Of a stretch of 55,727 bases of DNA, positions 1-55,589 are shown in pieces. The stretch's first letter is position 1. The number at the start of each line of letters is the position of its first letter. The stretch lies in UHGV virus genome UHGV-0036148; one strand, 5' to 3'. The DNA comes from a virus. The notes under the pieces were generated by a model. It was not told where the DNA came from. It was given only the letters and a program-made list of their open reading frames with translations, and made no database searches. The position numbers and the translations under genes were made by a program.

Positions 1-89
1 TCAATGTATCCGCATTCGTGATACCAGTACGCAATGCCAGCACGGACAAAAAAGCGGGTTTTATCCCGCTTGTGTTCATAGATACGCAT
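1..89 (-). CDS. hypothetical protein, N-terminal part of an ORF that runs off the window start and is in frame with the partial ORF at 55590..55727
   Basis: ATG at 89..87 preceded by GGGGTGA SD; frame stays open to position 1 and joins the open frame at the window end. Confidence 0.3.
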   Translation of the reverse strand, partial: MRIYEHKRDKTRFFVRAGIAYWYHECGYI

Positions 90-99
90 ATTCACCCCG

Positions 100-330
100 T
101 TATGCAGTTGTGTAGCTGTCCACCAGCTTTTCATCTTTCATTCTGGCAAGCTGGTCGATGTTCATCGTGTAGCCGCCATCGGAGAAAAGCAATTCAGCCG
201 CAGCGCGACGAAAAGCAATATCATCATGGTTACGTGTCCATGTAGCGATCACAACGCGTTTCCCGTTAGTGGCGAACATAGACAATTCGTTATCAACAAC
301 GTCGATAGCCTGCCAGATTTTTAATTCCAT
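100..330 (-). CDS. hypothetical protein (76 aa)
   Basis: six-frame ORF in tightly packed minus-strand operon; no recognisable motif. Confidence 0.4.
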   Translation of the reverse strand: MELKIWQAIDVVDNELSMFATNGKRVVIATWTRNHDDIAFRRAAAELLFSDGGYTMNIDQLARMKDEKLVDSYTTA

Positions 331-686
331 GATTTATCCCCGTAGATCTTGAATAGTTCACACGCTTCCTGATTTTCAAATATATTCATATGCAGGTCAC
401 GCAGGCGGCGCATTGTGCGGAAGCGCGGCCTGAACTCCTGGCTACGTTTAATGTATTTGCCGCCAATTGAATAAATATGCCCGTATGCGTACCATCTGTT
501 ACCTACCCATATATCATATTCTTTGCCTTCGTAATTAAATTTTATCGTTAGCTCGCCAACCTCAACTATTAACCCTTTGTCAATAATGTCATTAAGCATT
601 TCGTCCCATTCTTTGAGGAATGGTTGTTGATAAAAACCAAAAAGCGTATTTACAGCATGGCAAAGATAGTCAATGATTATTTGCAT
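321..686 (-). CDS. hypothetical protein (121 aa)
   Basis: ORF in operon context; no recognisable motif. Confidence 0.4.
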   Translation of the reverse strand: MQIIIDYLCHAVNTLFGFYQQPFLKEWDEMLNDIIDKGLIVEVGELTIKFNYEGKEYDIWVGNRWYAYGHIYSIGGKYIKRSQEFRPRFRTMRRLRDLHMNIFENQEACELFKIYGDKSWN

Positions 687-690
687 ATTA

Positions 691-903
691 TCACCACATC
701 ATATAATAAACGTTCTCGTCAGCTAACATGTCAGCTACATCCTGCGTCATGTGTCTGGCCTCAAGGAAAAAATCCTCACTATGCCATTCCCTTACAAGCA
801 TGCGCGCCCATTTACGGCGCTGGCGCTTATTGCGTCGCAGATCATCAAAAGCCTTTAATGCTTTGTCATATGCCCTTACCAGGCGTTTACGGTTACTTTT
901 CAT
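691..903 (-). CDS. small basic protein, tandem paralog A
   Basis: MKSNRKRLVRAYDKALKAFDDLRRNKRQRRKWARML closely parallels adjacent ORF 916..1104. Confidence 0.45.
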   Translation of the reverse strand: MKSNRKRLVRAYDKALKAFDDLRRNKRQRRKWARMLVREWHSEDFFLEARHMTQDVADMLADENVYYMMW

Positions 904-915
904 TTTTCACCCCAA

Positions 916-1104
916 TTAACCAAATAAATCCTCAGCAACAACATCATAAGCCTGATCAGCGGTTAATTTAGTATCACCAAAATTCCAATCCTTTGCTAAT
1001 TTCCTGGCTATGCGTCTTCTCTTGCGCTTATTGTTTTTCAGGTCGTCAAAATAACACAAACATTTATCATACGCCCTTACAAGGCGCTTAAGGTTACTTT
1101 TCAT
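916..1104 (-). CDS. small basic protein, tandem paralog B
   Basis: MKSNLKRLVRAYDKCLCYFDDLKNNKRKRRRIARKL; paralog of 691..903. Confidence 0.45.
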   Translation of the reverse strand: MKSNLKRLVRAYDKCLCYFDDLKNNKRKRRRIARKLAKDWNFGDTKLTADQAYDVVAEDLFG

Positions 1105-1107
1105 ATT

Positions 1108-1407
1108 TTAAATCCTATATTGCCAATAAATATCGCAGTGGATAGCAAAAACCTTAACAGGATCGTCACCAAACAAAGGATGTTGAATTGTCTTAATTGT
1201 GTACCCCATGTAAGGGAGAACAAGAATCCGCTTCTTATCTTCGTTTGCAGGGTATCCCCATTTAAGAATCAATCTTGTGTAGTCGCGCCCCTCAAGGCGT
1301 TTGCGCCAATAGTCATTATAAAGCCGGTATTCCTCTACCTTCTTCCCCGCCCGGATAGCGTGGAAGTATTCTCCTTTTAAATTCAAATGCAGGTGTTTAC
1401 TTGCCAT
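1108..1407 (-). CDS. putative ASCH-domain protein
   Basis: AGKKVEEYR fits the ASCH GxKxxExR signature; ATG at 1407 with AGGA SD; assignment from motif only. Confidence 0.35.
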   Translation of the reverse strand: MASKHLHLNLKGEYFHAIRAGKKVEEYRLYNDYWRKRLEGRDYTRLILKWGYPANEDKKRILVLPYMGYTIKTIQHPLFGDDPVKVFAIHCDIYWQYRI

Positions 1408-1669
1408 TGCTATGATCCTGTAAACAGTCGTTATAGCCTTCAATGTATCCGGTTAATCCGGTGTTACTCACTGACCATTCAGCTGAACGGCGCTTGATGG
1501 CCTCATCCATCGTAATTTCACCTTTACGGTGACATCCGGCGTCAATGTAACGGTTGACAACTGAAGACAACCTTCCGCGTAACTGTTGTGTTCCGGCGTA
1601 ATGGTGGGCCGTTTCCGTTAGTTCGTTAACTAGTTTTGCAAATAGATGTTCCTTTAATTTAGGCTTCAT
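1397..1669 (-). CDS. hypothetical protein (90 aa)
   Basis: ATG at 1669 overlaps upstream stop (translational coupling), GGGGTGA SD. Confidence 0.4.
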   Translation of the reverse strand: MKPKLKEHLFAKLVNELTETAHHYAGTQQLRGRLSSVVNRYIDAGCHRKGEITMDEAIKRRSAEWSVSNTGLTGYIEGYNDCLQDHSNGK

Positions 1670-1859
1670 TATCGTCACCCCGTTTGTATATTTTGATTGG
1701 CTTGATTGGGATTGCTGGCAATTCACCTTCATTCAATGCGCTTGCCATGCCCAATATTAAACGCGCTTCAGCACCAGTAACTTTCTTACACCACGCACCG
1801 CCCGTTTTATCTTCGAACAAGATAACGGCAAACTGATCGTTTATTTCCAGCTTATCCAT
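1659..1859 (-). CDS. hypothetical protein (66 aa)
   Basis: start overlaps Q stop codon (TAATG); operon context. Confidence 0.4.
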   Translation of the reverse strand: MDKLEINDQFAVILFEDKTGGAWCKKVTGAEARLILGMASALNEGELPAIPIKPIKIYKRGDDNEA

Positions 1860-2581
1860 TATTCACCCCGTGTCACTCGTTTGATTTCGTTGTCAGCCCG
1901 CGCCTCTTCTTTGAACAATTCGGCAATGGCGTCTTCATAGAAAGCCCGGTATTTCTTCCACCATGTTGATCGGCTTACCGGGAAAACAAGCTGATTAACC
2001 GCCTGCCGGACAAGATCTACAGGGAAACGCGAGTACCCGCGCCCGCCGCAGTGCTGGCACGTTTTGAACACTGGCATTTCCGCCGCTTCACTGGCTGCTT
2101 TATCCGGTACTTCGCCACGGCCCTTGCATTGTTTGCAATGATTGCGAACCGTCCCATGCCCCTTGCATTTTTTGCAAAGGTGTTTCTCACCGTATTCGTC
2201 AAACGTAAATTTATATCCGCCGCACTCCATACAAGTTTTTTCCGTCGCGGCGCTTTGGCAATAATCCCGAAACGCGAAAACGGCAACAAGAATAATGAGA
2301 TCATTGCGTTTGGCCTCGTCCAGTTCCATAACGTATTCATAATCTTTTGCCATAGCCCTTAAACGCTCTGTAAGCAAAACTACGGCCTTATGTTTTTCGG
2401 CTTGTGATAGTTCCATCTTTCCCAAAAAAGCGCTATAACCAAGCTCTACGCGCGATTGCGCCATACCTGCCGCAGTTAGTGCATCCGTAGTATTAAGAGC
2501 GTCCGGGGACGTGCCCCGGCTTTCATCTGATAAACGCGGTGATTTTGGGAAGTGGAATTTAAGAATAGATTCCAGATTCAT
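1859..2581 (-). CDS. Q: late antiterminator Q (lambda type) with extra CxxCxGxG zinc-finger repeats
   Basis: N-terminus MNLESILKFHFPKSPRLSDE... and C-terminus ...GYSRFPV...ADNEIKRVTR parallel lambda Q as I recall it; four CxxCxGxG motifs. Confidence 0.8.
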   Translation of the reverse strand: MNLESILKFHFPKSPRLSDESRGTSPDALNTTDALTAAGMAQSRVELGYSAFLGKMELSQAEKHKAVVLLTERLRAMAKDYEYVMELDEAKRNDLIILVAVFAFRDYCQSAATEKTCMECGGYKFTFDEYGEKHLCKKCKGHGTVRNHCKQCKGRGEVPDKAASEAAEMPVFKTCQHCGGRGYSRFPVDLVRQAVNQLVFPVSRSTWWKKYRAFYEDAIAELFKEEARADNEIKRVTRGE

Positions 2582-2763
2582 TATTTGCCCCCGTAACGAG
2601 CAATAAGGTGTTTACGATCAGAAATAGACTGAACTAACTTTCTCTCAAGCTCTTTCAATGCAAGCAATTCGCGCATATGAAAAGCCTGGATTTGTCGGAC
2701 TGTAGCTAAATAATGCTCATCGCGCTGAATATCTATTTGCAGATCTTTAATTTCGTTTTTCAT
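2581..2763 (-). CDS. hypothetical small protein (60 aa)
   Basis: ORF between rusA and Q; no recognisable motif. Confidence 0.35.
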   Translation of the reverse strand: MKNEIKDLQIDIQRDEHYLATVRQIQAFHMRELLALKELERKLVQSISDRKHLIARYGGK

Positions 2764-2766: not shown

Positions 2767-3168
2767 TCACCCCCACATATTAGTTTCGTATTCACCAATA
2801 TCCGGTAACAGGTCGCCGCGTTCGCGAACTTTAATAAACAATCGCCCGCCTTTTACCTTCCGGCAGCGAACAATTTTTATTGCGTCGATTTGTCCGTCAT
2901 CATTCCAGAACTCTGCATAAGTAAGACTATCAAAAAGGCATTTGGGGATATTATCTAGATCTCTGGTTCGGTTATCCGGCGGCGCGGCATGAATGGTAAT
3001 TGCCAGTCGGCAAGATAGGTTGATGTTTAAATTTAATAGCTCGATGATGTCTCTTACTTGCTCACGGTATTCTTTTCCAACCTTGCTGATATAGTGAAAA
3101 CCGCGTGAATGCCGATAATATCGGTTATTAGATGGCGGGTAAGGTAGGCTAAATGTATATTCATTCAT
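2767..3168 (-). CDS. rusA: Holliday junction resolvase RusA
   Basis: LPYPPSNNRYYRH ... RDLDN ... KGGRL motifs match the RusA family. Confidence 0.85.
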   Translation of the reverse strand: MNEYTFSLPYPPSNNRYYRHSRGFHYISKVGKEYREQVRDIIELLNLNINLSCRLAITIHAAPPDNRTRDLDNIPKCLFDSLTYAEFWNDDGQIDAIKIVRCRKVKGGRLFIKVRERGDLLPDIGEYETNMWG

Positions 3169-3770
3169 GCTGCCTTTCTCCTTAAGGCGTCTAATTTAGC
3201 CTGATAGACTTTTATGATTTCCTTACATTCTTCTATCGTCCATTTGTGAGTTTCGTTGTTGTTCTCCAGCGCCACCACCCTGGCGAGGCCAATTTTTCGA
3301 ATCAGTGCCGGGCGATACCCTCCGATGTTGCCGTCTAGTGTCTGGTTGCAGTGCCTGCATTGCTTGTGACAATTATCATCGTTGAAACGAAGATGTCCTG
3401 CGGCGGCTACCGTCCTGTAATGGCCTGCATCCCACCCGCATTGCTCACCGTAGTAAGTCCCGCATGATATGCACGGCAATCGCGAGTCACGCTCGCGTAT
3501 ATAAGCGTTAAAAACGTTTTGTGCCTGTTTAATCCAGTAGCTACGCGGATTTAACTGCTTCCGCTTCCGGCTGCGCTCTTCCCGCTGGCTATCACGGCGT
3601 CTCTTCCGCTCCATAGCCTTCATAGCCTTCTCACGGTCGCGGCATAGCTGATCAAACTTCAGCTCTTCCAGACATTCATCGCTGCACCATGTTTGATTGT
3701 GATATTTAGGCTCAAAAAAAACGCCGCAGCATTTGCAACGGCGTCTTATGGGTTTTTTAGGGTTCTGCAT
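3165..3770 (-). CDS. ninG: NinG/Rap-like recombination protein
   Basis: RRRCKCCG, PRSYWIKQAQ, LPCISCGT, DAGHYRT, LRFN, HKQC, HRWTIEECK parallel lambda NinG; ATG at 3770 with GGGGTGG SD. Confidence 0.75.
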   Translation of the reverse strand: MQNPKKPIRRRCKCCGVFFEPKYHNQTWCSDECLEELKFDQLCRDREKAMKAMERKRRRDSQREERSRKRKQLNPRSYWIKQAQNVFNAYIRERDSRLPCISCGTYYGEQCGWDAGHYRTVAAAGHLRFNDDNCHKQCRHCNQTLDGNIGGYRPALIRKIGLARVVALENNNETHKWTIEECKEIIKVYQAKLDALRRKAA

Positions 3771-3784
3771 AAAAACCACCCCGA

Positions 3785-3961
3785 TTATTTTTGATTCTCT
3801 GTTTCGTTCAGCCTTTCGGCGTGTCCGGCCCTTAGCCAATGTTCTAAGCATTCGTTGCACTCGTTACAGCCTCCTTTCTTCGTGCTGCATACATTGCACA
3901 TTGCACGCATGACGCTCTCTCGTTCATAGTCGTCATGCCATTGGTAATTATCAAAAGGCAT
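3785..3961 (-). CDS. small Cys-rich protein (putative zinc-binding)
   Basis: CNVCSTKKGGCNECNEC motif; ATG at 3961 with AAGGAG SD. Confidence 0.4.
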   Translation of the reverse strand: MPFDNYQWHDDYERESVMRAMCNVCSTKKGGCNECNECLEHWLRAGHAERLNETENQK

Positions 3962-4120
3962 AATGCTCTCTCCTTTTAAGGTGATTTCTACGCATTTCAG
4001 CGCTGCCGGATTTTTAAAGAGCATTTTGCTTGCTTGAAGTATACAAAATGGATACGTGTAAACAAGACGAATAGCGCCATTATGTGATCCACATCACGCA
4101 ATGGCGCCATTTTGTAAATT

Positions 4121-10284: not shown

Positions 10285-10937
10285 TAACCGATCTCCCCGT
10301 TAAGCTCTTTTAAGCGAATGTCATAAACGTCTTTCGCTTTCTGTTGCTGTTCTGAATCTTTAGGCAGTAGTTTCCAGCACTTCCCGAAGATCTCGCGTAA
10401 CTTGTTAGCGTCCTGCGCTTTCGCTGCCGCATCACAGAAACGCGCTAACACCTCATCAGGATTTGGCGGCGCTTTCTGCTGCTGTGGTTTCTGATTAGGT
10501 TGTTGTTTTGGTGGGTTTTTCTGCTGGCGAGGCTGCTGCCCTGTCTGTTTAGCGTATGCGTCGCTATCTAAATCTTTCGCATCGTCAATACAGAACAAGC
10601 CATTCAAGCAATATTTGCGAGCATAAGAAGATGTCGCGCCAGTTAATTGACCAGCCGACATTCCTTTTTGTTCCTTCTCCTCGCGAGCGAAAGCAGTAGC
10701 CGTTATTTCGTCTTCTCCATCGCTCAATACCGCCGTAGCCTTAATGTAATAACGATCACCAATTAACACAACTTCATCATTAAGCGTTAATGTAATGCCT
10801 TCCAGTAAAGGCTTGACAGCCTCCAAAATATCCTCAGCCGACCTATAATTGTAACCCCCGTATGAGTTGCGCTGAGATTTTGGCGCCTTTAATTGTTGCT
10901 GTATTAGCCACAATTTTTTATATAAATCTTTCTTCAC
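10284..10937 (-). CDS. erf: Erf-family single-strand annealing protein
   Basis: N-terminal region resembles the Erf family (recalled); position beside ssb; GTG start at 10937. Confidence 0.6.
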   Translation of the reverse strand: MKKDLYKKLWLIQQQLKAPKSQRNSYGGYNYRSAEDILEAVKPLLEGITLTLNDEVVLIGDRYYIKATAVLSDGEDEITATAFAREEKEQKGMSAGQLTGATSSYARKYCLNGLFCIDDAKDLDSDAYAKQTGQQPRQQKNPPKQQPNQKPQQQKAPPNPDEVLARFCDAAAKAQDANKLREIFGKCWKLLPKDSEQQQKAKDVYDIRLKELNGEIG

Positions 10938-11379
10938 ATCGTTTCCCCTTTTTTAAAGGAAGAAGTACAGCGGCCTCATGAGTCCAGCCGCGACGCAATC
11001 TTGTATGTATAGTGTGCTCACATATACCGTATTTTTCAGAAAAATAATGTACCGTGTTTGTTTCCCCCTTCACTGTTAACATCATGGTTCTGCATGTATT
11101 GCGCATGTTTTCAGCGTGCGTAACCCATCGGCAATTATCAGGTGAATACCCCTTGTCGTTGTCAATCCTGTCTATTTCTAACCCTTCACGATAACCGTTA
11201 TTTAAAGCCCACTCGATAAACTTTGACGAATCATTCAACCATTCGTCACATATAGTTATATTTTTATCCTTATAGTGTTTATTTCGTGGATTCTTATCGC
11301 TTTCCCTGCATCTCGTTTTCATTCCCTTAAAAACGTCATAAAGTTTTGTATGCGTCATTCCATGTTTTGAATAACCCAT
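10918..11379 (-). CDS. HNH endonuclease
   Basis: IDRIDNDKGYSPDNCRWVTHAENMRN HNH-type motif; AAGGAGA SD. Confidence 0.6.
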   Translation of the reverse strand: MGYSKHGMTHTKLYDVFKGMKTRCRESDKNPRNKHYKDKNITICDEWLNDSSKFIEWALNNGYREGLEIDRIDNDKGYSPDNCRWVTHAENMRNTCRTMMLTVKGETNTVHYFSEKYGICEHTIHTRLRRGWTHEAAVLLPLKKGKRCEERFI

Positions 11380-11528: not shown

Positions 11529-11819
11529 TTAATGGTAGCGGACTTTATCCAGGGGTTTCTCCCCTAAATGGCGTGGTTGCGTTGCGTGGTAGTAGCTGCC
11601 GCTTTCATTTTCCGTATACCATTTTACTGATCCTTTGCGACGTTCTTTAATGCTATTTGGTTTGCATCTTTCCTCGTTTGCAAATCGAATAGCTTTATCC
11701 ACATTGTCTGTTTTATTAATTGCAGGTGATGATTTTCTTTCGTTTTCTCTTTTTATCCTTCTGCGTTCCCTGGCGTTCATTTTGCTATCACATTTTCCAT
11801 ACATAATTGTAACGCTCAT
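11529..11819 (-). CDS. putative N-like antiterminator (arginine-rich motif protein)
   Basis: NARERRRIKRENERK arginine-rich motif near N-terminus; first gene of the leftward operon. Confidence 0.3.
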   Translation of the reverse strand: MSVTIMYGKCDSKMNARERRRIKRENERKSSPAINKTDNVDKAIRFANEERCKPNSIKERRKGSVKWYTENESGSYYHATQPRHLGEKPLDKVRYH

Positions 11820-12160: not shown

Positions 12161-12196
12161 GATTCGCAATATACGCCCCGTAAAACACCGAGTCAA
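12161..12196 (-). promoter_or_regulatory. candidate leftward early promoter (PL-like)
   Basis: minus strand TTGACT - 17 bp - TATATT between cI terminator and N-like gene. Confidence 0.35.
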
Positions 12197-12289
12197 TCCA
12201 TTTTGTATACTTTTTTAAAATATTTTATATGCTATTGATATCTAAACAATAAATAGCGTTTTCTGTTTACGTTTTGGTGTTTTTTTGGG

Positions 12290-12320
12290 CGAAGAAAAGC
12301 CGCCATCCGGCGGCTAATGT
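12290..12320 (-). terminator. rho-independent terminator after repressor gene
   Basis: minus strand GCCGCCGGATGGCGGC hairpin followed by TTTTCTT. Confidence 0.5.
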
Positions 12321-12968
12321 TTATGGCAGGTTTACGATCTTCGCATCAACCACCACGCCCAATATTTTTGACTCTGGATTCATAGGGATCGGCGGATACA
12401 ACGGATTCAGTGAACGCAAAAGTTTTCGGCCTCCATCAATAATCAACTGTTTAAACGTAGGTATCTGCCCTTCCTCCAGTTGTGCTATAACAAGTTTTCC
12501 GTCAATAGCTGGCGCGTGCGGGTCAACGAGTATCATAGTCCCCGCCGGGATGCTTAACCCCTGCGGTGCGTTCATTGATTCACCTTTAGCAACCAGCCAA
12601 TAACTATCATCCGAACAAATAACGCTAGTAGCAACGTGTGGCAATGTTGATCGGTGTGTGCCTTCCATATTGTTTGCTACATCCTTCCAGTCAACAACCG
12701 GATAACTGCCTAAATCACGCGGTGGCGCTCCCGGCAACGTGTTAGAAACAGAATCATCAATGACCATTCCGTCATGAGTAACAGTGAATTGCCGACGCCC
12801 AAGCGCCCGCATGATACGCGCAATATCTTCAAGATTCGGCTCACGGCGACCGTTCAGCCAGTGAGAAAGGCCGCCTTTGGTTATCCCCATAAGATCAGCC
12901 AATGAATCCTGGCTCATGCCCTGCGCCCGCATGAGTTGTTTTGCTAAGTCATACCATTTTGTTTTCAT
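12321..12968 (-). CDS. cI: CI-like repressor (HTH_XRE + S24 LexA-like peptidase)
   Basis: N-terminal HTH (QDSLADLMGITKGGLSHWLNG), C-terminal S24 domain with AKGESM serine motif and K later. Confidence 0.8.
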   Translation of the reverse strand: MKTKWYDLAKQLMRAQGMSQDSLADLMGITKGGLSHWLNGRREPNLEDIARIMRALGRRQFTVTHDGMVIDDSVSNTLPGAPPRDLGSYPVVDWKDVANNMEGTHRSTLPHVATSVICSDDSYWLVAKGESMNAPQGLSIPAGTMILVDPHAPAIDGKLVIAQLEEGQIPTFKQLIIDGGRKLLRSLNPLYPPIPMNPESKILGVVVDAKIVNLP

Positions 12969-13531: not shown

Positions 13532-14578
13532 ATGAAGTGGTTTAAGCATGATAGCGATGCGAACCGCGATGAAAAACTTCAAAACGTTTTATTAGATTAT
13601 GGCCTGGAAGGGTACGGGCTTTATTGGTATTGCCTCGAACTAATAACTTATGACGTAGATCAGCACAATCTGACTTTTGACCTACGACATGACGCGAGAA
13701 TCATTGCGCGAAACGTCGGATCGACTGAAAAACGTATAGAAGAAATGATGAAATACTTCATCGAAATTGGTTTGTTTGAATGTTCTCAAGGCCACATAAC
13801 TTGTTTAAAGTTATTGAAAAGGCTGGACCAATCAATGACTTCTAAAAGCGCTTACAGGGCCGCCATAAACACAGCGAAGGAGCAATTAAAATTAGAAAAG
13901 TTAATCAATCCAACACAAAAAGGTCATGATAGGGTCATGACCGGGTCAGGAAAGGGTCATGAATTAGAATTAGAAGAAGAAAGAGAAAAAGATATATACA
14001 CTTCGTGTATTGTCGAAAATGAACAAAAAATGGTCAATCAGGATGGCGTAAACGAAGCGGCGTTGCGTTGCCTGGCCTTCTACAACGACAAGGCAGGATG
14101 CAAATGTCGTGATGCGAAGCCATTCATCGAACTACTGACAGAAACAAAAACACGTAAAGCGTATACGGAGGATGAGATCACATTAGTGATTGAGTGGGCT
14201 TTAACGCAATGGCGTAGCCGTGGTGGAACACCTAAGCCTATCAATATTTGCCGGGTAACTAAATTTGATGGGTATCTGACTGATGCTGAACAATGGCGCA
14301 AACTGTCAGCCACCGCAAACGCTGCCGACGTGGTGGAAGCATTTAACAGCACGTTTGACAGCCTGTTACCACCTGTCGAACTGGATCGGGATCTTGAGCG
14401 CAAGATCTATGCGTTCACTGACTACCTGAAAGACAAAAGCATTAACGGCTTTGTCGCCTACTTCGAAACGTTCAAAAACACGGCTTCAGATTTTTACTTC
14501 GGCGATGGCTTCACAGCGACACTTGATTTTCTGCTTAAACCAAAAACGCTACGCGATACACGCGCAGGCGCTCTTTGA
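13532..14578 (+). CDS. replication initiator / replisome organizer
   Basis: N-terminus MKWFKHDSDANRDEKLQNVLLDYGLEGYGLYWYCLE resembles the phage replisome-organizer N-terminal domain; contains iterons. Confidence 0.6.
   Translation: MKWFKHDSDANRDEKLQNVLLDYGLEGYGLYWYCLELITYDVDQHNLTFDLRHDARIIARNVGSTEKRIEEMMKYFIEIGLFECSQGHITCLKLLKRLDQSMTSKSAYRAAINTAKEQLKLEKLINPTQKGHDRVMTGSGKGHELELEEEREKDIYTSCIVENEQKMVNQDGVNEAALRCLAFYNDKAGCKCRDAKPFIELLTETKTRKAYTEDEITLVIEWALTQWRSRGGTPKPINICRVTKFDGYLTDAEQWRKLSATANAADVVEAFNSTFDSLLPPVELDRDLERKIYAFTDYLKDKSINGFVAYFETFKNTASDFYFGDGFTATLDFLLKPKTLRDTRAGAL
13915..14010. other. candidate origin of replication (iterons + AT-rich tract) inside initiator gene
   Basis: four 11-bp-spaced copies of GGTCATGA/GGTCAGGA followed by AT-rich attagaattagaagaagaaagagaaaaagatatata. 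Confidence 0.5.
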
Positions 14579-14712
14579 CCACCCACGATCCGCAAAAACC
14601 CAAAATAACCCGCAAAACAAGCTCGCCAGCGAGATAAATCGCATGTGGTGCTACACTTACTTACCTTTTTGCGATTAGCTCGTTATAGAGCGTTACAGAG
14701 AGGATTTCAAAA

Positions 14713-14814
14713 ATGGACGGTAAACACGTTTTCGCCCTGGCTTTTGCCATCGCCGCTGCAATAGCTGTTAACGTCGCCTTGTTCGGCGGTTTGTTCCTTC
14801 TCGTCAATCCATAA
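14713..14814 (+). CDS. mini membrane peptide (33 aa)
   Basis: MDGKHVFALAFAIAAAIAVNVALFGGLFLLVNP; GAGG SD. Confidence 0.3.
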   Translation: MDGKHVFALAFAIAAAIAVNVALFGGLFLLVNP

Positions 14815-14946
14815 CCTACCTACCAGTCTGTAAATCAAAAATTAGCCACCCGATAGCGCCTCTAGCGCAATAAGACACTGCAACCTGTGCAAACGGGTTA
14901 CGCGGTGGGATTTTTGCGTTGTAGAGCGTTTTACGGAGAAATTACA

Positions 14947-15684
14947 ATGTCTGAGTTGATGTGTTTTAATTTTGATGACAATAAAATCACTGCTGTAATT
15001 TATGACGGTAAACCTGCTTTTGTTGCGGTTGATGTGGCCCGTGCGCTGGGGTACAACGACGAGCATCAGGCCATTAAAAAACATTGTAAGTCATTGATTA
15101 AACTTGATTCCGTTAAAACAACGGAATTAGGTTTTGGGTTCAGACCAAAAGGCATAATTATAATTCGAGAGGCAGATATATACCGTCTTGTTATGAGATC
15201 AAAATTAGAATCAGCCGAGCGCTTCCAGGATTGGGTGTGCGAGGAGGTTCTTCCGGCTTTGCGTGAAAATGGGTGTTACGGTTGCAAACCTGCTTTGCCT
15301 GACTTCTCTAACCCTGCGGAAGCGGCGCGGGCGTGGGCTAATGAATACGAGCAAAAATTGTTAGTTAAGCAAGAAAATGAACGTCTTGCGCTTGAAAATA
15401 AAGTGCTGGCTCCGAAAGCGGCTGTATGTGACGCGATAGTCAAAAACGATATGCACCGAACGGCTTCAGAGGTAGCTAAACCGCTGGGAATGTCAGCCGT
15501 AAAATTAAACAGAAAACTTTCGGCGGTTGGTGTTTATGATCTTCGCTGTCGCCGCCGTGTATTCAGTCAGTGGTTTATTGATGAGGGCTACGGTGAAATG
15601 AGGGTAACTCACGATGGATATGAGCAGGCTGTATTCACTGCTAAAGGACAAGTATGGATCACTGAGCTTTTAACTTGCAACTAA
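14947..15684 (+). CDS. antirepressor (Bro-N + KilA-C/Ant domains)
   Basis: FNFDDNKITAVIYDGKPAFVAVDVARALGY Bro-N signature; C-terminal Ant-like region; GGAG SD. Confidence 0.75.
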   Translation: MSELMCFNFDDNKITAVIYDGKPAFVAVDVARALGYNDEHQAIKKHCKSLIKLDSVKTTELGFGFRPKGIIIIREADIYRLVMRSKLESAERFQDWVCEEVLPALRENGCYGCKPALPDFSNPAEAARAWANEYEQKLLVKQENERLALENKVLAPKAAVCDAIVKNDMHRTASEVAKPLGMSAVKLNRKLSAVGVYDLRCRRRVFSQWFIDEGYGEMRVTHDGYEQAVFTAKGQVWITELLTCN

Positions 15685-15718
15685 GTATACAATTTGTTAT
15701 TCGTGAGGAAATGACACT

Positions 15719-16837
15719 ATGTCACAAAGAAAAATCAGCGATGAGCAATTGATCGCTGAATATAACAACGGTTTAACGTACAAGCAGATCGCTGAAAAAT
15801 ATGGCATGTCAAAACGCAACGTCGAGCGGCTAGGCGCAAAACTGGCGAAACGCGGTTTAATATCCACGCGTCGCGCACCGGGTTTTGGCGTCAATGCTGA
15901 GTCATTGCTCGTCGATAAGGATGGCAATGTGATCATGCGCTGGATTAAAACAGCCCGTGACCGCGACGAAATGGAACAGTTAATGGAAGCGGCCCGCGAC
16001 GCTTTCACGGATGAAATACCACGCGCGGAGGCTGTGCCAGTGCCTGAAATTGATTTTCAAAAAAGCCTGGCCCTTTATCCGGTGTTTGATCTGCATATCG
16101 GGGCGCTTGCTCATAAAGCTGAATGCGGCGAGAGCTACGACACTGGGATCGCTGAGCGCGTGTTGAATGACTTCTTTGACTACGCTGTTGGCGCTGCTCC
16201 GATGTCTGAAAAAGCCGTACTGCTCCTCGGTGGCGATCTGCTTCATTCTGACGGTATGGTCCCGGTGACGCCAATAAGCGGGCACATTCTTGATCAAGAT
16301 AGTCGCTACGCAAAACTTGTTTATGTGGCGATCCGGTCTGTCCGGCGGGCGGTAGGTAAAATGTTGTTAAATCATAAGGATGTTGAAATCCAGGTGTTAT
16401 CAGGCAATCACGATCAGTCAGGCATGATTTGGCTACGTGCGGCGCTGGCGGCTTTTTACGAAGATGAACCGCGCGTGACGGTTGATGTGTCCCCTACTAT
16501 CGTCCACCACACACAGTACGGCAAAACATTCCTTGCTTACCACCACGGGCACACTATCAAAAAGCCGGAAAATTTATTGTCTGCTTGCGTAGCTGACTGG
16601 CGTGAGGATTTCGGCAAGTCTGCGGCGGTTTACGCTCATTGCGGGCACTGGCATCATCAACGGCTGATTGAATCATCGTTAGGCGTTGTTGAGTATCACG
16701 GCACATTAGCGGGTAAAGACGCTTATTCAACGAATGGCGGTTGGCGGTCGCGGCGTCTGGCGGCGGTGATTATTTACAGCCCGGATCATGGGGAAATTGG
16801 GCGCTTTGTTTATTACCCTGAATATTCCATTTTGTAA
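15719..16837 (+). CDS. HTH domain fused to calcineurin-like metallophosphoesterase
   Basis: N-terminal HTH (LTYKQIAEKYGMSKRNVERL); phosphoesterase motifs DLHIG, GGDLLH, GNHD, HHGH, GHWHH. Confidence 0.6.
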   Translation: MSQRKISDEQLIAEYNNGLTYKQIAEKYGMSKRNVERLGAKLAKRGLISTRRAPGFGVNAESLLVDKDGNVIMRWIKTARDRDEMEQLMEAARDAFTDEIPRAEAVPVPEIDFQKSLALYPVFDLHIGALAHKAECGESYDTGIAERVLNDFFDYAVGAAPMSEKAVLLLGGDLLHSDGMVPVTPISGHILDQDSRYAKLVYVAIRSVRRAVGKMLLNHKDVEIQVLSGNHDQSGMIWLRAALAAFYEDEPRVTVDVSPTIVHHTQYGKTFLAYHHGHTIKKPENLLSACVADWREDFGKSAAVYAHCGHWHHQRLIESSLGVVEYHGTLAGKDAYSTNGGWRSRRLAAVIIYSPDHGEIGRFVYYPEYSIL

Positions 16838-16855
16838 ACCGGAGGCAATAACATA

Positions 16856-18271
16856 ATGGTAACTGAGCAAATAAACTCACTACGGCAGGAACGTGAAGCG
16901 TCAGTTATCGGCGGGCTACTGTTAGGTGGCCTTACTCCTAACGCGCAAGATGTTCTCGCCACACTTGATCCTGAAGTGTTCACGATCCCGCTTTATAAAC
17001 GTGCGTTTGAAGTTATCCGGGCGCAAGCCAGAAACAGGAATCTTATCGACGCGTTATTAGTTGGCGATGAGATTGGCAATGAAAACTTTGTACCGCTAAT
17101 GCAAACGGCGCGATCGTGTCCTTCTGCTGCCAACCTGAAGGGATACGCACAGCTACTACGTGAAGAGCACCAGCGGCGGCAGATGCTGGAACTCATCGAC
17201 GATATGCGCTACAAGCTGGAAACGGGGACGCTTGAAGTCGTCAAAGAGACGATGAAAGATTTTGATTCCCGGTACTCAAAATTAAAGGTAACGAAAGACA
17301 AGATTATTCCGGTTCTGTTGCGCGATGCGGTACAGGAATACACGGAGGTGTTAAGCAAACGCATGGAATGCGGTGTCAATTCTGACAACATCAAAACAGG
17401 GATAGAACCACTCGACGAAATGTTAGGCGGAATTAACGCTACTGATTTGGTACTTCTCGCCGGACGTCCTGGGTCTGGTAAATCTGCGTTGGCGCTTGCA
17501 ATTGCTCGCGAGGCTGCCGAGCGCCCTTACCCTGGTGGCGAAGGTCAGCGGGTAGGCGTTTTGCTGTTTACGCTTGAAATGTCACTCGATCAGATGACTG
17601 AACGGGCCATTGCTGGCGCTGGTAATTTATCAACTGACTGCCTGCGCAATCCGGTAAAACTTGATGATGAGGGTTGGGCGCATGTCGGCCAGGGTATGAG
17701 CGCACTTGCTAATCTTGAGGTGTGGATCGTTGACGCGTCGCAGTTAACGGTTGAGGAAATACGCGCAACAACGGAACGCATGAAGCAGGATCACCCAAAC
17801 TTGGGCATGGTAATGATTGACTACATCGGTTTAATGAAGCTGGCTAAAGCCGAACGTCACGATCTCGCTGTAGGGCAATTGTCATGGTCGTTGAAGATGA
17901 TGGCGAAAGAATTGCGCGTACCAGTGTTGGCGCTGGCCCAGTTATCCCGCCGCGTTGAGGAACGACCTAACAAGCGCCCTAATAATTCAGATCTTCGAGA
18001 TTCAGGGAACCTTGAGCAAGACGCTGACAGGATCATCATGGTTTACCGCGATGGTTATTACGATGAGCAGTCTGTAGCACGCGAATACATGGAAATAATT
18101 GTATCTAAAAACCGTCACGGGAAAACTGGTACTGTTTACCAGCGGTTTGATGACAACGGCAATATCCTCCCTTGTGACCAGGCCCGCGCAGCGTCTGCAT
18201 GTATTCAGTCTATGAATCATCGTACAAGCAGATTTAACCAACGAAACAACCAGAATAACGCATCCTTTTAA
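16856..18271 (+). CDS. dnaB: DnaB-family replicative helicase
   Basis: Walker A GRPGSGKS, Walker B MVMIDYIGLM, DnaB-like N-terminal domain. Confidence 0.85.
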   Translation: MVTEQINSLRQEREASVIGGLLLGGLTPNAQDVLATLDPEVFTIPLYKRAFEVIRAQARNRNLIDALLVGDEIGNENFVPLMQTARSCPSAANLKGYAQLLREEHQRRQMLELIDDMRYKLETGTLEVVKETMKDFDSRYSKLKVTKDKIIPVLLRDAVQEYTEVLSKRMECGVNSDNIKTGIEPLDEMLGGINATDLVLLAGRPGSGKSALALAIAREAAERPYPGGEGQRVGVLLFTLEMSLDQMTERAIAGAGNLSTDCLRNPVKLDDEGWAHVGQGMSALANLEVWIVDASQLTVEEIRATTERMKQDHPNLGMVMIDYIGLMKLAKAERHDLAVGQLSWSLKMMAKELRVPVLALAQLSRRVEERPNKRPNNSDLRDSGNLEQDADRIIMVYRDGYYDEQSVAREYMEIIVSKNRHGKTGTVYQRFDDNGNILPCDQARAASACIQSMNHRTSRFNQRNNQNNASF

Positions 18272-18347
18272 TCAATATGAGCAAACGGCTTACCAGAAAG
18301 TTTACCGCTTTCTGGTGGCTGTTATCGCGTTTAAAGCGAGGCTGAAA

Positions 18348-18857
18348 ATGAAAACTTCATACCAACAACAAATAATTGATTTTTTAAATGACGCTGTTAT
18401 TTCAGGTGAGGGAACGATAGTTAAATCTATTCCTGGACCGGAAGGTGAAATAATTTGCGCTTTGGATGCTTTGGTTTCTGATGGCGTTATTATAAAAGTA
18501 GATCTAAATAGTAAAAGATTATCATATTGCTTGAAGTCAGTAAGGGAAATGGCGATAAGGGATATAATCCCTTTGTTTTCAAATAGTAGCGGGTATTTTT
18601 CAGCGGAAGATGTTAAGAATGAATTGAATATTAATATAAACAAAGGAAAGGTCGGCAGAATATTGCGGATGTTAGGAAGTGAGAATCTATTAACCGTTAA
18701 TAAGTTTGACGGTAAATATTTTTTCAGAAACGCGCGTTTTTATGGTTATTCAAATGTTGTCGCATTTAATTTTAGTAACTTATTAAACGAATACCGTAAA
18801 GATAACGGCCTACTGCCTGATAAACCAGTATTTGAGATTGAAAAACTTAACGGTTAA
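18348..18857 (+). CDS. hypothetical protein, AT-rich gene
   Basis: ORF with visibly lower GC than neighbours; GAGG SD; no motif. Confidence 0.4.
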   Translation: MKTSYQQQIIDFLNDAVISGEGTIVKSIPGPEGEIICALDALVSDGVIIKVDLNSKRLSYCLKSVREMAIRDIIPLFSNSSGYFSAEDVKNELNININKGKVGRILRMLGSENLLTVNKFDGKYFFRNARFYGYSNVVAFNFSNLLNEYRKDNGLLPDKPVFEIEKLNG

Positions 18858-18871
18858 ACGGGGTTGGAACT

Positions 18872-19078
18872 ATGAGGCGTGTAATTTTTTATTCAGTTGA
18901 AACGTTTGTTGACGATACGCGCGTTTATTATCCGTGGGAAGTATACGACGCAATGGTGTATACGCCGCCACTAATGCGGAAATATAAACACGTAAAATTT
19001 AACCGGGTTTTCGTGCCGATGCGCGATGCATTACGGGCGCTGCGTGGGGAATTAAGAAACACAATGCGGATTGTGTAA
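18872..19078 (+). CDS. hypothetical protein (68 aa)
   Basis: ORF in operon context. Confidence 0.3.
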   Translation: MRRVIFYSVETFVDDTRVYYPWEVYDAMVYTPPLMRKYKHVKFNRVFVPMRDALRALRGELRNTMRIV

Positions 19079-19088
19079 GGGGGGGGGG
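19079..19088 (+). repeat. G10 homopolymer tract forming the RBS of the downstream gene
   Basis: ten consecutive G between stop TAA (19076-78) and ATG 19092. Confidence 0.9.
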
Positions 19089-19091
19089 ATT

Positions 19092-19319
19092 ATGAACAAG
19101 GATTTAGAATTGACCGTGGAGGATTTAAGCACTATCGCGGAATACAAGCGCGGCGGTGATCCTGATAAACCTGTCACGGTTGATATGAAATATTTAAAAG
19201 ACGCTTTTATGACTTCTTCAAGATTGATAAGTCTTGATGCAATTATAAAGGCTCGCTGGGAAAGTTGGCAGGAATACAAAGCAAAAAATAAGGCAAAAAG
19301 AAATAATGCGGCAAATTAG
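19092..19319 (+). CDS. hypothetical protein (75 aa)
   Basis: ATG 4 nt after the G10 tract. Confidence 0.35.
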   Translation: MNKDLELTVEDLSTIAEYKRGGDPDKPVTVDMKYLKDAFMTSSRLISLDAIIKARWESWQEYKAKNKAKRNNAAN

Positions 19320-19737
19320 ATTTGAAATAGTAAACGACGCCGTAAAAGAAAACGCTATCAGGCAGATAAGGGAGATCCATCCTGATAGCAAAAGCCCGCT
19401 GGTAATTACCATCCAGGAGAAAACCCGCTCACTGAGTCAAAACGCGTTACTTTGGGCGCTGCTGACAGACGTTAGCAATCAGGTTAATTGGTACGGCAAA
19501 AAGCTGTCGCCGGAAGACTGGAAGGCGGTATTCACTGCCGGGCTTAAGAAATATGGCGTTGTCCCTAACCTGGATAAATCAGGTTTTGTTGTGCTGGGAA
19601 CGTCAACCAGCCGGATGAGTAAAGCGGAATTTAGCGAATTAATCGAACTGATCTACTCGTTCGGCGCGGAACACGGTGTTCAGTGGTCTGGCGATACGAA
19701 GTTAAACGAGGAATTTATAAAACGCTGGGGGCAATAA
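19306..19737 (+). CDS. ninB: NinB recombination protein
   Basis: PLVITIQEKTRSLSQNALLWALLTDVSNQVNWYGK...VPNLDKSGFVVLGTSTSRM parallels lambda NinB. Confidence 0.85.
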   Translation: MRQIRFEIVNDAVKENAIRQIREIHPDSKSPLVITIQEKTRSLSQNALLWALLTDVSNQVNWYGKKLSPEDWKAVFTAGLKKYGVVPNLDKSGFVVLGTSTSRMSKAEFSELIELIYSFGAEHGVQWSGDTKLNEEFIKRWGQ

Positions 19738-51287: not shown

Positions 51288-51758
51288 TTATTTTTTGCGT
51301 AAGCACTGCGTTTTGATATAGCTCTGAAGTCCGGCGATCTTCGCGTCTTTCTCTTTTAGTTGTTCTCTGAGGGATAGATAAGCCGATTCAGCGTCTGGAG
51401 TGAGTCTACAGGTGGCTCCATCAATGCGGCTGGCGGTTCCGGTATTGTCGAGCAATCGCACTGGCTCGGCGTTGACGTGCAACCGGATAGCACCGCTATC
51501 AATGCCAGCACGCAGATCGGCAATGTCAGATCTGATAGCTTTAATCTCATCGTGATACCTCTTATCAAGTTTTGACAGTTCGGCGTTTCGCTCCTTCATC
51601 TGCTGAATAGTGTTACTTGCTGTTTTTAGTGCGCCTTTCGTCACCGTGACTTCTTCCTGCAACCTTGCCGTTTCACCCTGGTAATAACACGTTACGGCTG
51701 TAAGGCTGGCAATAATGCAAACAACAACGGCGATGATTAACGTCTTCACCTTGTCCAT
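51288..51758 (-). CDS. i-spanin (Rz-like)
   Basis: N-terminal TM helix then coiled-coil; directly downstream of endolysin. Confidence 0.65.
51356..51550 (-). CDS. o-spanin (Rz1-like) embedded in Rz in alternate frame
   Basis: [24 protein letters not shown] lipobox, Pro-rich mature part; fully nested in Rz. Confidence 0.55.
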   Translation of the reverse strand: MRLKLSDLTLPICVLALIAVLSGCTSTPSQCDCSTIPEPPAALMEPPVDSLQTLNRLIYPSENN

Positions 51759-52237
51759 TTCTCACCCCATTCGCAAACGGCATATTCAACCTCGCGGCGG
51801 TTTACCAGGCCTTGCCACTTCTTACCGCCAGCGTATACCCAGCGTTTAAGCTGTGCGCACGCTTCTGATTTCTTGCCGTCATTGAGTAGTTTTAATAAGG
51901 TTGATGTTTTAAAGTTGGTTGTGCCTACGTTATAGGCGAATGAATAAAGTGCTGCGCGGGTAAAATCTGATATTTCGACTTTAATATAGGGATCGATCGC
52001 TTTTGCGGTCTTGTGTAGATCTTTATTTAACAAAGTATCGCATTCTGATTGCGTGTAAGTCTTGCCAAGCATGATGTCTTTTCCGGTGTGACCGTGGCAA
52101 ACAGTCCACACACCAACAACATCACGATAAGGATTGTAATCAACTCCCTCTAATGGCTTAATCATCACCGCCGCAATAGCGATCGCCCCACCAGCCGCCG
52201 CCGCAACAATCTTGTTTTTCAGCGATTGGCTAATCAT
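51746..52237 (-). CDS. SAR endolysin (T4-lysozyme-like muramidase)
   Basis: Gly/Ala-rich N-terminal SAR segment [18 protein letters not shown]; E...D...T catalytic spacing in [18 protein letters not shown]. Confidence 0.85.
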
Positions 52238-52438
52238 TTACTTATTCCCCATTCGCGCGTCGTGTTCCTCTTGCGCTCGCTTGTTCTCCTGTGATTTGAA
52301 GTAATAGTTAACGGCAAATGTGCCTACGGTTGATAAGATACCCACAAAGACGGCAATATCATTGATGGTTATCGCGCCGAAAAAAGCAGTTACGGCCCCA
52401 GTCACATACGCGCACGCCTCCCGTATTCTGTCTAACAT
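52238..52438 (-). CDS. holin (pinholin-like, two TM segments)
   Basis: 66 aa, two hydrophobic segments, charged C-terminus, immediately upstream of SAR endolysin. Confidence 0.65.
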   Translation of the reverse strand: MLDRIREACAYVTGAVTAFFGAITINDIAVFVGILSTVGTFAVNYYFKSQENKRAQEEHDARMGNK

Positions 52439-52455
52439 AGATTTACCTCCAACAA

Positions 52456-52480
52456 AGCAAAAACCCGGCGCGGGGCCGGG
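52456..52480 (-). terminator. rho-independent terminator immediately upstream of holin (tR'-like)
   Basis: minus strand CCCGGC-cccgc-GCCGGG followed by TTTTTGCTTTGTT. Confidence 0.55.
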
Positions 52481-52508
52481 TAATTACAATTTCGCATTGT
52501 TAGGTAAT

Positions 52509-52537
52509 ATTTTAATCTGTTTGTTTACGCTCTACAA
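52509..52537 (-). promoter_or_regulatory. candidate late promoter (PR'-like)
   Basis: minus strand TTGTAG - 17 bp - TAAAAT about 30 nt upstream of terminator hairpin. Confidence 0.3.
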
Positions 52538-52545
52538 ATACGGCT

Positions 52546-52722
52546 TTACGACTTTCTTTTTATCAGGCCATTATCAAGCAATAATTGCATTTGTTCACGG
52601 CTCATATTTACACCAGACCAGAAAGGCCGCTCACTCGACATAACAAAAACCTTTTCACCTTTCAGCAAGTAAGCAATATCAAATACATTATGCAAATAGA
52701 TGCCGTCTTCGATCTCGTTCAT
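52546..52722 (-). CDS. hypothetical protein (58 aa)
   Basis: ORF below 60-aa cutoff found by manual translation; MNEIEDGIYLHNVF... Confidence 0.3.
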   Translation of the reverse strand: MNEIEDGIYLHNVFDIAYLLKGEKVFVMSSERPFWSGVNMSREQMQLLLDNGLIKRKS

Positions 52723-52916
52723 AGCTCACCAACCTTGCGCCAATATCCGTGATTAAACATCGTGATGATCTCCACAGATGTCATAGGTAAAAACGGCTCA
52801 TGCCACTTCTCAAACTGACTTAATCGCATCATCACTTGTTCACCTTCAAGGCGATAATAAGCGCGTGAAGCCAATGACTGATAAACACCGTCATATTGAT
52901 GGTTGCTATTTCCCAT
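52719..52916 (-). CDS. hypothetical protein (65 aa)
   Basis: ORF in operon context. Confidence 0.35.
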   Translation of the reverse strand: MGNSNHQYDGVYQSLASRAYYRLEGEQVMMRLSQFEKWHEPFLPMTSVEIITMFNHGYWRKVGEL

Positions 52917-53148
52917 TTTTACGCTCCTTAATGGCTCGCTTGATCTGCTCTACCGTAGCATCGAAGAAAGCAAGAAACATAACTACAGGCCATAAAGGAA
53001 TCTCAAGGCCACCAGGTTTAGCACCGCTAAACTTAATAAAACATGACATCAGGATCGCGCCAGCGATATAAAGCAAAACAATCACAGCAATAAGGCATTC
53101 AATCATCATCGTCCTCATCGTCCTCATGTTCAGCCAGGAACTCATCAA
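52906..53148 (-). CDS. small membrane protein (two TM)
   Basis: IAVIVLLYIAGAILMSCFI and LWPVVMFLAFF hydrophobic segments. Confidence 0.4.
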   Translation of the reverse strand: MMSSWLNMRTMRTMMIECLIAVIVLLYIAGAILMSCFIKFSGAKPGGLEIPLWPVVMFLAFFDATVEQIKRAIKERKNGK

Positions 53149-53353
53149 CTACGCGGTAAGTCACTGGCGGGATGTATTCGAAATCATCAGAATCAAGATC
53201 AAGCGTCCGGCTGTCGCCGTCATCGTCCAGCGTATTCATCCCTAATTCACCGAAAGGGCCGTACCCAATACAGCCCAGATATTCGCAACCAATCGTAAAG
53301 CCAGGATATTCTCCCTTACACCTGATCTTGTACAGCTTATTTGATGCGCTCAA
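53099..53353 (-). CDS. small protein with poly-acidic C-terminal tail
   Basis: ends ...AEHEDDEDDDD; Cys/Gly-rich N-terminal half. Confidence 0.4.
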   Translation of the reverse strand: MSASNKLYKIRCKGEYPGFTIGCEYLGCIGYGPFGELGMNTLDDDGDSRTLDLDSDDFEYIPPVTYRVVDEFLAEHEDDEDDDD

Positions 53354-53660
53354 TGTTAATTCCCCCTTCCGCGCCCTCAGTCATTTTGTATTCCGCCACC
53401 AGTTCAGCACCGATCAATTCCACTTCATCACCAGGGAACGGAACGAGCGCCAGCGACGCGAAAACAAACTGTTTAATGTGGTTCAGATGGTCAAGGTCTT
53501 TCACGTCAAAAGGCGGTTCCGCTACATCGAAGCACTTAACACATGATTCATCATCAGTTGCTACACGGAAACATGCGCCAGGTTGTCCAGCGAATTGTCC
53601 AAGTTTTTTATTTTCTGCAAAAGTGCCACGGAAAACCTTAACGCTGATAAATTTAGACAT
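53337..53660 (-). CDS. hypothetical protein (107 aa)
   Basis: ORF in operon context. Confidence 0.4.
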   Translation of the reverse strand: MSKFISVKVFRGTFAENKKLGQFAGQPGACFRVATDDESCVKCFDVAEPPFDVKDLDHLNHIKQFVFASLALVPFPGDEVELIGAELVAEYKMTEGAEGGINIERIK

Positions 53661-53663
53661 TTG

Positions 53664-53921
53664 TCATTCTCCTTCGTAAAGAATTGTTACCAGTTCTGCA
53701 TCTGTTAGCGTGTTGTGATCTTTATAAGTACCGTAGCGAGCAACGAAAGCTATTTCGCCAGCTATTTTCCGCCACATAGGGATCGACTCATCAAAATAGG
53801 TGTTCTCCATTGCCTCCCTGTATGCCAGTTCATAAAAACGCCCACGGTTAACATCTTCAATCACGCGGCTATACGTGCCATCGGTACGACTTACGCCGCG
53901 CCATAGCCTGAACACAACCAT
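53664..53921 (-). CDS. hypothetical protein (85 aa)
   Basis: ORF in operon context. Confidence 0.4.
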   Translation of the reverse strand: MVVFRLWRGVSRTDGTYSRVIEDVNRGRFYELAYREAMENTYFDESIPMWRKIAGEIAFVARYGTYKDHNTLTDAELVTILYEGE

Positions 53922-53923
53922 AA

Positions 53924-54223
53924 TTAAAACTCCGCACCAGGTAAGCTACGCGCTTTGTTTACCACATCGCTTTCTAGTCTACGACGCGCTTTATAATTCA
54001 TGTTCGACATAAAGATTGCAGGTGTTTCATCATACCATGCCTTAATTTTTAACAACTGATCCACAGTGAAAACCATGTCATCATCTGTTATGTATAGCCA
54101 GTCTTCGCGCTTGCCGACCACAACATGAGATTTTCCCCAACTGTCTTTAAACTCATAATCGCAGAAGGCATCACCTTTAGGCACTTCAACAAAACAGCAC
54201 GCTATGAACTTATTGCTTTTCAT
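53924..54223 (-). CDS. hypothetical protein (99 aa)
   Basis: ATG 54223; longer frame would begin inside an intergenic hairpin. Confidence 0.4.
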   Translation of the reverse strand: MKSNKFIACCFVEVPKGDAFCDYEFKDSWGKSHVVVGKREDWLYITDDDMVFTVDQLLKIKAWYDETPAIFMSNMNYKARRRLESDVVNKARSLPGAEF

Positions 54224-54262
54224 GATTTTGTCCCATCTGTCTTTCTGTGGTTTATATATAAC

Positions 54263-54292
54263 AAAATGGCATCGCCGGAGAAATGCCATTTT
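54263..54292. promoter_or_regulatory. perfect 10-bp inverted repeat hairpin in intergenic gap
   Basis: AAAATGGCAT-cgccggagaa-ATGCCATTTT. Confidence 0.4.
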
Positions 54293-54295
54293 GTA

Positions 54296-54317
54296 TACAT
54301 TGTGATACAGATCACAT
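54296..54317. promoter_or_regulatory. CRP-consensus palindrome TGTGA-N6-TCACA
   Basis: cattgTGTGAtacagaTCACAtttt; perfect half-sites, 6-bp spacer, A/T flanks as in CRP consensus. Confidence 0.45.
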
Positions 54318-54326
54318 TTTGTTCAT

Positions 54327-55073: not shown

Positions 55074-55077
55074 GATG

Positions 55078-55305: not shown

Positions 55306-55307
55306 CT

Positions 55308-55586: not shown

Positions 55587-55589
55587 TCC

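Follow-up and report, generated by a model that had tools for sequence, protein, structure and literature searches.

The Q gene and its surroundings

The DNA analysed here (the window) is a stretch of 55,727 nucleotides, virus genome UHGV-0036148, and its minus strand carries at 1859..2581 a gene for a Q-type antiterminator. The genes and sites around it are as follows, the divergent operon being given first and the others in the order in which the minus strand is read.

13532..19737 (+): divergent operon with a gene for an O-like initiator, one for a DnaB-like helicase (16856..18271) and ninB (19306..19737)
12321..12968 (-): CI-like repressor gene (phrog_4, E 1e-40), co-directional with the Q operon
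12168..12196 (-): promoter-like TTGACT-17-TATATT, predicted from the sequence, past the repressor gene and a terminator, where the operon leading to Q has its head
11529..11819 (-): N-like antiterminator gene, a homologue of gp17, with the arginine-rich positions R17, R19, R20, R21 and R24
4011..4023 (-): boxA-like TGCTCTTTAAAAA, in the gap that separates the cytosine methyltransferase gene from the ninF-like one
3165..3860 (-): ninG/rap, extent of the mechanically called ORF (PF05766, E 4e-68)
2767..3168 (-): rusA, Holliday junction resolvase (PF05866, E 2e-14)
2581..2763 (-): conserved 60-aa ORF between rusA and Q (phrog_18514, E 3e-25), its stop overlapping the Q start codon
1859..2581 (-): Q gene, a 240-codon ORF (240 aa), Qλ family PF03589
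51288..52438 (-): lysis cassette of holin (52238..52438), endolysin (51746..52237) and spanin (51288..51758), the first late genes past the terminator

The window belongs with a published group of temperate coliphages. Its first 6 kb match mEp554, mEp013, mEp010, mEp044, MagusPhagus and mEp021 (88-92% identity over 75-95%), its last 4.7 kb match the same genomes, and positions 1 and 55722 correspond to neighbouring bases in mEp554. Since its two ends abut in that phage the window is, judging from these matches, a whole phage genome, circularly permuted and running opposite to the published records. A small minus-strand gene that begins at 88 crosses the window junction and reaches 55583 (1..88 + 55583..55727). 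The mEpimmI phages, to which mEp021 and mEp554 belong, have been described as Nus-dependent non-lambdoid coliphages, with an account of Gp17, of nutR1 and nutR2, of terminators t1-t5 and of "Nλ-like and Qλ-like proteins" in which only the N-like Gp17 was tested and Q was named by similarity (PMC11893012). The gene order of the window is that of annotated mEp021, in which the Q homologue appears as "putative late gene regulator Q" (gp37).

Read along the minus strand, the order is the CI-like gene, a terminator, the promoter-like site, gp17, an HNH gene, erf, ssb, methyltransferase genes, the boxA-like gap, the ninF-like gene, ninG, rusA, the 60-aa ORF and Q. The repressor gene thus stands upstream of the early operon in the same direction; next come a terminator-like hairpin, AGCCGCCGGATGGCGGCTTTTC, and the near-consensus TTGACT-17-TATATT (12168..12340, minus strand). 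The N-like ORF has the length of mEp021_17 and reads ...NARERRRIKR..., and it carries the arginines R17, R19, R20 and R24 that are conserved in Gp17 (PMC11893012). Between the gp17-like region and erf there is an HNH endonuclease gene (10918..11379, minus strand); a gene of such size is absent from that place in mEp021, and several relatives carry HNH genes near ninG and rusA. According to the legend of Figure 7 in the published account, nutR2 of mEp021 lies roughly at the gap that holds the boxA-like element (PMC11893012), and from its sequence TGCTCTTTAAAAA would therefore occupy roughly the nutR2 position. The true start of ninG is probably near 3770, since the homologues are 606 nt long. 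The 60-aa ORF is annotated in mEp554 and in prophages and is unannotated in mEp021. The boxA-like TGCTCTTTAAAAA is close to the rrn boxA consensus. Scans of the whole window for Rfam families and tRNAs gave no matches.

Downstream, the stop codon of Q overlaps the start codon of the following ORF. About 20 small ORFs are found from here on, almost gapless over 5.1 kb and across the window junction (100..1859 and 52546..55727, minus strand). This block between Q and the lysis cassette is shortest in mEp021, where one of its genes is annotated as a virion structural protein.

The initial annotation had put Q at the distal end of a long leftward operon together with ninG and rusA, with ninB left in the opposite operon, and had seen in this a mosaic arrangement. 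The association is borne out, ninG and rusA being directly upstream of Q on the same strand and ninB lying apart from it, grouped with the replication genes on the plus strand. Q is not the last gene, however, as it is followed on its strand by the small ORFs and, after these, by all the late genes, and "leftward" describes no more than the orientation of the window, the published mEp021 map being its reverse complement, on which the direction is rightward (nutR1, nutR2). The layout described is right in substance, Q keeping company with N-like and recombination genes and not with replication genes, but it is the mEpimmI organisation already published (PMC11893012).

Identity and conservation of the Q protein

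The ORF at 1859..2581 had been called a lambda-type Q from the outset, with the correct coordinates, and alignment against the Q family shows homology. In a Pfam scan the product scored 103.9 bits against PF03589, "Antitermination protein Q" (cut-off 26.7), which is the Qλ family according to Yin et al. 2022 (PMC9388147). It also matched PHROG 127, "Q-like", with E 9e-79, and its top match among PDB sequences in a phmmer search was λ Q itself (7UBM chain Q, E 4e-39), whilst NCBIfam gave no model above threshold for window Q, λ Q or φ80 Q. The aligned residues fall into two blocks, 1-114 with λ Q 1-114 and 148-238 with λ Q 117-207, and 33 residues are left between them; the parallel drawn earlier with the N- and C-termini of λ Q is therefore a sound one. 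Matches to PF03589, to PHROG 127 and, in two blocks, to λ Q make the likeness one of homology and not of chance. The parts of the protein referred to below are these.

2450..2581 (-): residues 1-44, homologous to the λ Q torus/nozzle segment at the RNA-exit channel
2141..2239 (-): residues 115-147, the inserted module at the arm base, with knuckles 1 and 2 (C117/C120 and C136/C139) as a putative second zinc ribbon
2033..2140 (-): residues 148-183, the homologous counterpart of the zinc ribbon in the λ Q arm

In λ Q the N-terminal segment refolds to form a torus or nozzle on the RNA-exit channel (PMC9388147); the alignment of window Q to λ Q 1-114 is unbroken and covers that segment. Among the residues of λ Q that have been implicated in the nozzle and in contacts to RNA polymerase, G39, L58, S110-A112 and T237 are unchanged in window Q, V6 and L202 are each replaced by I, and G39 and T237 are invariant across the aligned Q proteins. 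A structure prediction was made with AlphaFold2 (24 homologues as input, mean pLDDT 80.9). Window Q has a four-helix body with a helix-turn-helix and a protruding zinc-ribbon arm, and shares the λ Q fold. The gene is under purifying selection, with a dN/dS of about 0.03 against three homologues of the group, and the four cysteine knuckles are invariant in 24 homologues. It was found in 7/7 phages of the group and in 35 prophage-bearing genomes, a Q of this type occurring in 35 of 5426 complete E. coli genomes. Window Q is, with a high degree of confidence, a full member of the Qλ family that serves as late-gene antiterminator of a temperate coliphage of the mEpimmI group and, by homology, should work in the manner of λ Q.

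The cysteine-rich region

Four cysteine pairs are found in the centre of window Q, at 117/120 (CMECGGYK), 136/139 (CKKCKGHG), 149/152 (CKQCKGRG) and 175/178 (CQHCGGRG). The four CxxCxGxG motifs reported initially are thus four knuckles, two more than in λ Q, of which three are strict and the first is CxxCxGxK. In λ Q the two knuckles together bind one zinc. The second two pairs have direct counterparts in λ, C149, C152, C175 and C178 being equivalent to the zinc ligands C118, C121, C144 and C147 of λ Q, with a spacing of 22 residues between knuckles 3 and 4 in both proteins. Residues 114-152 of λ Q form the zinc-ribbon arm, which touches positions 11-13 of the Q-binding element and the β' zinc-binding domain (PMC9388147), and the insert at 115-147 is accordingly placed at the base of the arm.

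How the four pairs would be combined into zinc centres is suggested by natural variation within the family. Some members have only two knuckles, and these retain the equivalents of knuckles 3 and 4: P0046 (200 aa) lacks exactly knuckles 1 and 2, which its close relative P0036 (269 aa) has, and the two share the same CRCNGTG knuckle. A CxC variant occurs only at the third knuckle of four, or at the first of two. Residues 114-145 of window Q, moreover, weakly resemble the single-zinc site of anti-TRAP (E 1.3e-4, below cut-off). On these points the insert is a separable module, and a pairing in tandem ribbons (1+2 and 3+4) is favoured over interleaved centres of the DnaJ style.

The interleaved arrangement deserves consideration as the initial annotation had spoken of DnaJ-like repeats. 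It would make the four motifs a DnaJ-type cysteine-rich domain, with zinc centres formed by 1+4 and 2+3 and a chaperone-like or protein-binding role apart from antitermination. Three of the motifs are indeed strict CxxCxGxG, residues 136-183 match PF00684 with E 8e-6 and there is a weak match to the DnaJ equivalog of NCBIfam. However, with 26.4 bits the PF00684 match falls short of the cut-off of 32.7, the NCBIfam DnaJ matches are local, confined to residues 130-183 and of 24.5 bits against a cut-off of 377.2, and no further DnaJ match reached a curated cut-off in Pfam or NCBIfam. The four strict repeats expected of DnaJ are not present, the first being CMECGGYK, and a Pfam scan found no J-domain family in window Q at E values up to 0.01. 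Motifs 3 and 4 align residue by residue with the single λ zinc ribbon, spacer included, and the natural two-knuckle proteins, as well as the placement of the CxC variant, fit tandem ribbons. The resemblance to DnaJ, as read from the sequence, is one of motif only, and a DnaJ-type domain is given little credence. We consider it very probable, for this point jointly with the whole explanation offered here, that the 33-residue insert is a second, separable, putative zinc-binding pair of hairpins at the base of the arm and a common form of the family.

An important consideration is how common that form is, since the initial annotation had treated the expanded region as a departure from the lambda type. 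Cysteine pairs are present at all four positions in every aligned Q except λ Q (φ80, SfV, HK225, Salmonella phage SF10 and database homologues), and the sole variable part is the linker that joins knuckles 1 and 2, which has 15 residues in window Q and is far longer in the longest relatives. When 1.84 billion cluster representatives were searched exhaustively with HMMER, 176 relatives were found, and among full-length representatives of 50% clusters about 29/40 had four knuckles and about 7/40 had two. A four-knuckle gene of the SfV type, annotated ydfT, is carried by 2471 of 5426 complete E. coli genomes, K-12 included. By these counts and the frequency of ydfT, the four-knuckle architecture is that of the majority in the sequences surveyed and it is λ Q that represents a short minority form, the reverse of what had been supposed. 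A Q of this type, its four knuckles and the genome layout are already in public records, the layout in a paper of 2025, and what had been singled out is real but ordinary.

Within the group, two markedly different forms of the module of knuckles 1 and 2 occur, CMECGGYKFTFDEYGEKHLCKKCKGHG and CPKCGGHGHLPNPYCKYTSTICARCGGKG, in otherwise near-alike Q proteins (2141..2239, minus strand). They give proteins of 240 and 242 aa that are closely similar elsewhere, and this looks like a swap of the module by recombination.

A candidate site of Q action

Each Q protein is specific to a binding element of its own. In the stretch after Q one gap is sizeable, that at 52439-52545, which immediately precedes the holin gene at a distance of 5.1 kb past Q and whose sequence can be written TTGTAG-17-TAAAAT-ATTACCT-AACAATGCG-14 nt-ACCCGGCCCCGCGCCGGGTTTTTG. 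The elements predicted in it are the following.

52455..52537 (-): candidate Q-utilisation cassette, predicted from the sequence
52532-52537 (-): weak -35-like TTGTAG
52509-52514 (-): -10, TAAAAT
52496-52501 (-): σ-pause-like AACAAT
52463-52481 (-): intrinsic terminator, T tract to 52455

In λ, φ80, SfV, HK225 and SF10 the PR' region after Q has a -10 followed at 6-7 nt by a -10-like pause element, which is AACGATGGG in λ, SfV, HK225 and SF10 and AACGCTGGG in φ80, and annotated terminators follow PR' in φ80, SfV and HK225. The TAAAAT-7-AACAATGCG of the window parallels the PR' layout of these five phages. The terminator hairpin has a folding energy of -18.1 kcal/mol (z -3.05); it corresponds to TERM_5 of mEp021, which is taken to be t5, listed as an experimentally demonstrated terminator (PMC11893012). 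Conservation of the stretch between the -10 and the holin start is 95-100% across 7 phages and 32 prophages, higher than in the flanking genes. A relative with a 48%-identical Q and the same synteny, known from 52-kb metagenomic contigs, has TATAAT-6-AATAAT-GGC and a terminator in the equivalent gap before the holin gene. A composite regular expression for promoter plus pause found one locus in the window, the 52455..52537 cassette, and was not enriched, as 1.6 loci would be expected in shuffled sequence. Since the expression does not rise above shuffles, the case for the cassette rests on its position, its conservation and the adjoining terminator, and on these grounds the most likely Q target, as a predicted site, is the invariant segment that immediately precedes the holin gene.

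Two other sites were considered and set aside. A hairpin at 71..52 (minus strand) was tried as tR' and dropped on account of its lying inside the gene that spans the window junction (mEp554_55), and a promoter-like site at 52597..52570 (minus strand) is within coding sequence and unconserved, the upstream sequence differing in several relatives.

Upstream of the predicted -10 the group is less uniform. The -35 TTGTAG is weak and is replaced or absent in variant-B relatives, the DNA upstream of a conserved AAACAAA-AGAT spacer comes in two versions, and the distance from the Q stop to the cassette ranges from 1.9 to 7.2 kb. The idea that the extra ribbon reads this upstream promoter DNA was examined by comparing arm-module and upstream-promoter variants in 11 genomes: the combinations occurred 4, 2, 4 and 1 times, with no strict link, and from these counts no co-variation of the module with that DNA is visible. 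An altered grip on RNA polymerase is conceivable, since the insert adjoins residues that match the λ contacts to the β' zinc-binding domain. Only tentatively can it be suggested that the second ribbon is a functional extension of the arm which alters the grip on RNA polymerase or DNA and, as part of the same proposal, that mEpimmI Q acts on a late promoter whose -35 is slight or missing and which is uncoupled from Q by 2-7 kb of small accessory genes.

From early to late transcription

By homology, Q of the window should act as it does in λ. It would be transcribed within a long early operon. Beginning past the repressor gene, this operon also contains gp17, erf, ssb, methylase genes, ninG and rusA and would rely on antitermination by Gp17. 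The N-like Gp17 would act at nut sites upstream of Q in the same operon, enabling transcription to reach Q. The target of Q would be the -10 followed at 7 nt by the second, -10-like AACAAT and then by the strong terminator, with the late genes downstream. Its helical body, with the helix-turn-helix, and the zinc-ribbon arm would bind a Q-binding element in the late promoter, and Q would dock on RNA polymerase held by a σ70 pause just downstream of that promoter. Together with NusA, the N-terminal 44 residues would refold as a nozzle on the RNA-exit channel and so block terminator hairpins. A different route from delayed-early to late control had been suggested on the strength of the gene arrangement, but with Gp17 acting at nut sites upstream of Q and the late genes lying past a terminator, the order of the cascade, from N-like protein to Q to late genes, is unchanged.

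An alternative is that Q is dispensable or vestigial in the mEpimmI group, the Gp17-modified early transcript passing the terminator before the holin gene and driving the late genes. That one strand carries every gene from 12.2 kb up to and including the late region, that a promoter-sized gap directly after Q is absent and that the candidate late promoter has a weak -35 would all be in keeping with this, and since all late genes point the same way as the early operon antiterminated by Gp17, read-through could give some late expression without Q. It is, however, hard to reconcile with a dN/dS of about 0.03, with the presence of Q in all 7 phages and 35 prophage-bearing genomes, with the conservation of all four knuckles and the key λ Q residues, and with an invariant segment whose tandem -10/-10-like elements and terminator bear the signature of a Q-loading site and recur in a distant relative. 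A vestigial Q gene is unlikely, and late expression driven by Gp17 in its place is scarcely credible.

Comparison with known systems

All structural work on the Qλ family has been done on λ Q, a short and atypical form, and a solved four-knuckle Q would reveal the role of the extra ribbon. What is new is confined to two points: a four-knuckle Q has so far been neither solved nor dissected, and in the mEpimmI clade kilobases separate the Q gene from its probable loading site. These phages therefore provide a natural case of such a separation, in which the proposed fragment is testable.

The closest counterparts are within the group. The product of mEp554_49 is 99.2% identical to window Q, and in length, neighbours and downstream cassette both it and gp37 of mEp021 are as in the window, with nothing substantive differing. 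The mEpimmI relatives differ in how many small ORFs separate Q from the holin gene, the interval being 1.9 to 7.2 kb. φ80 Q (gp17 of JX871397), the Q proteins of SfV and HK225 and the product of ydfT from the Qin prophage of E. coli K-12 have the same four knuckles at the same positions as window Q, to which they are 32-39% identical, and differ from it in a longer linker between knuckles 1 and 2, the proteins reaching about 280 aa. In φ80, SfV and HK225, PR' directly follows Q, whereas in the window the candidate promoter is 5.1 kb away; the φ80 record JX871397 annotates PR', a Q-binding site and terminators. φ80 Q was reportedly studied by Guo and Roberts in 2004. The Q protein of λ is about 35-40% identical to window Q over the nozzle segment, the four-helix body and the C-terminal helix (PDB 4MO1, 7UBJ-7UBN), and its Cys4 zinc ribbon is spaced identically, but it is without counterparts of residues 115-147, that is of knuckles 1 and 2. 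The arrangement of repressor, terminator and early promoter in λ also differs from that of the window, and the λ Q gene is part of the replication (PR) operon, directly upstream of PR', whereas in the window Q is found with the N-like and recombination genes.
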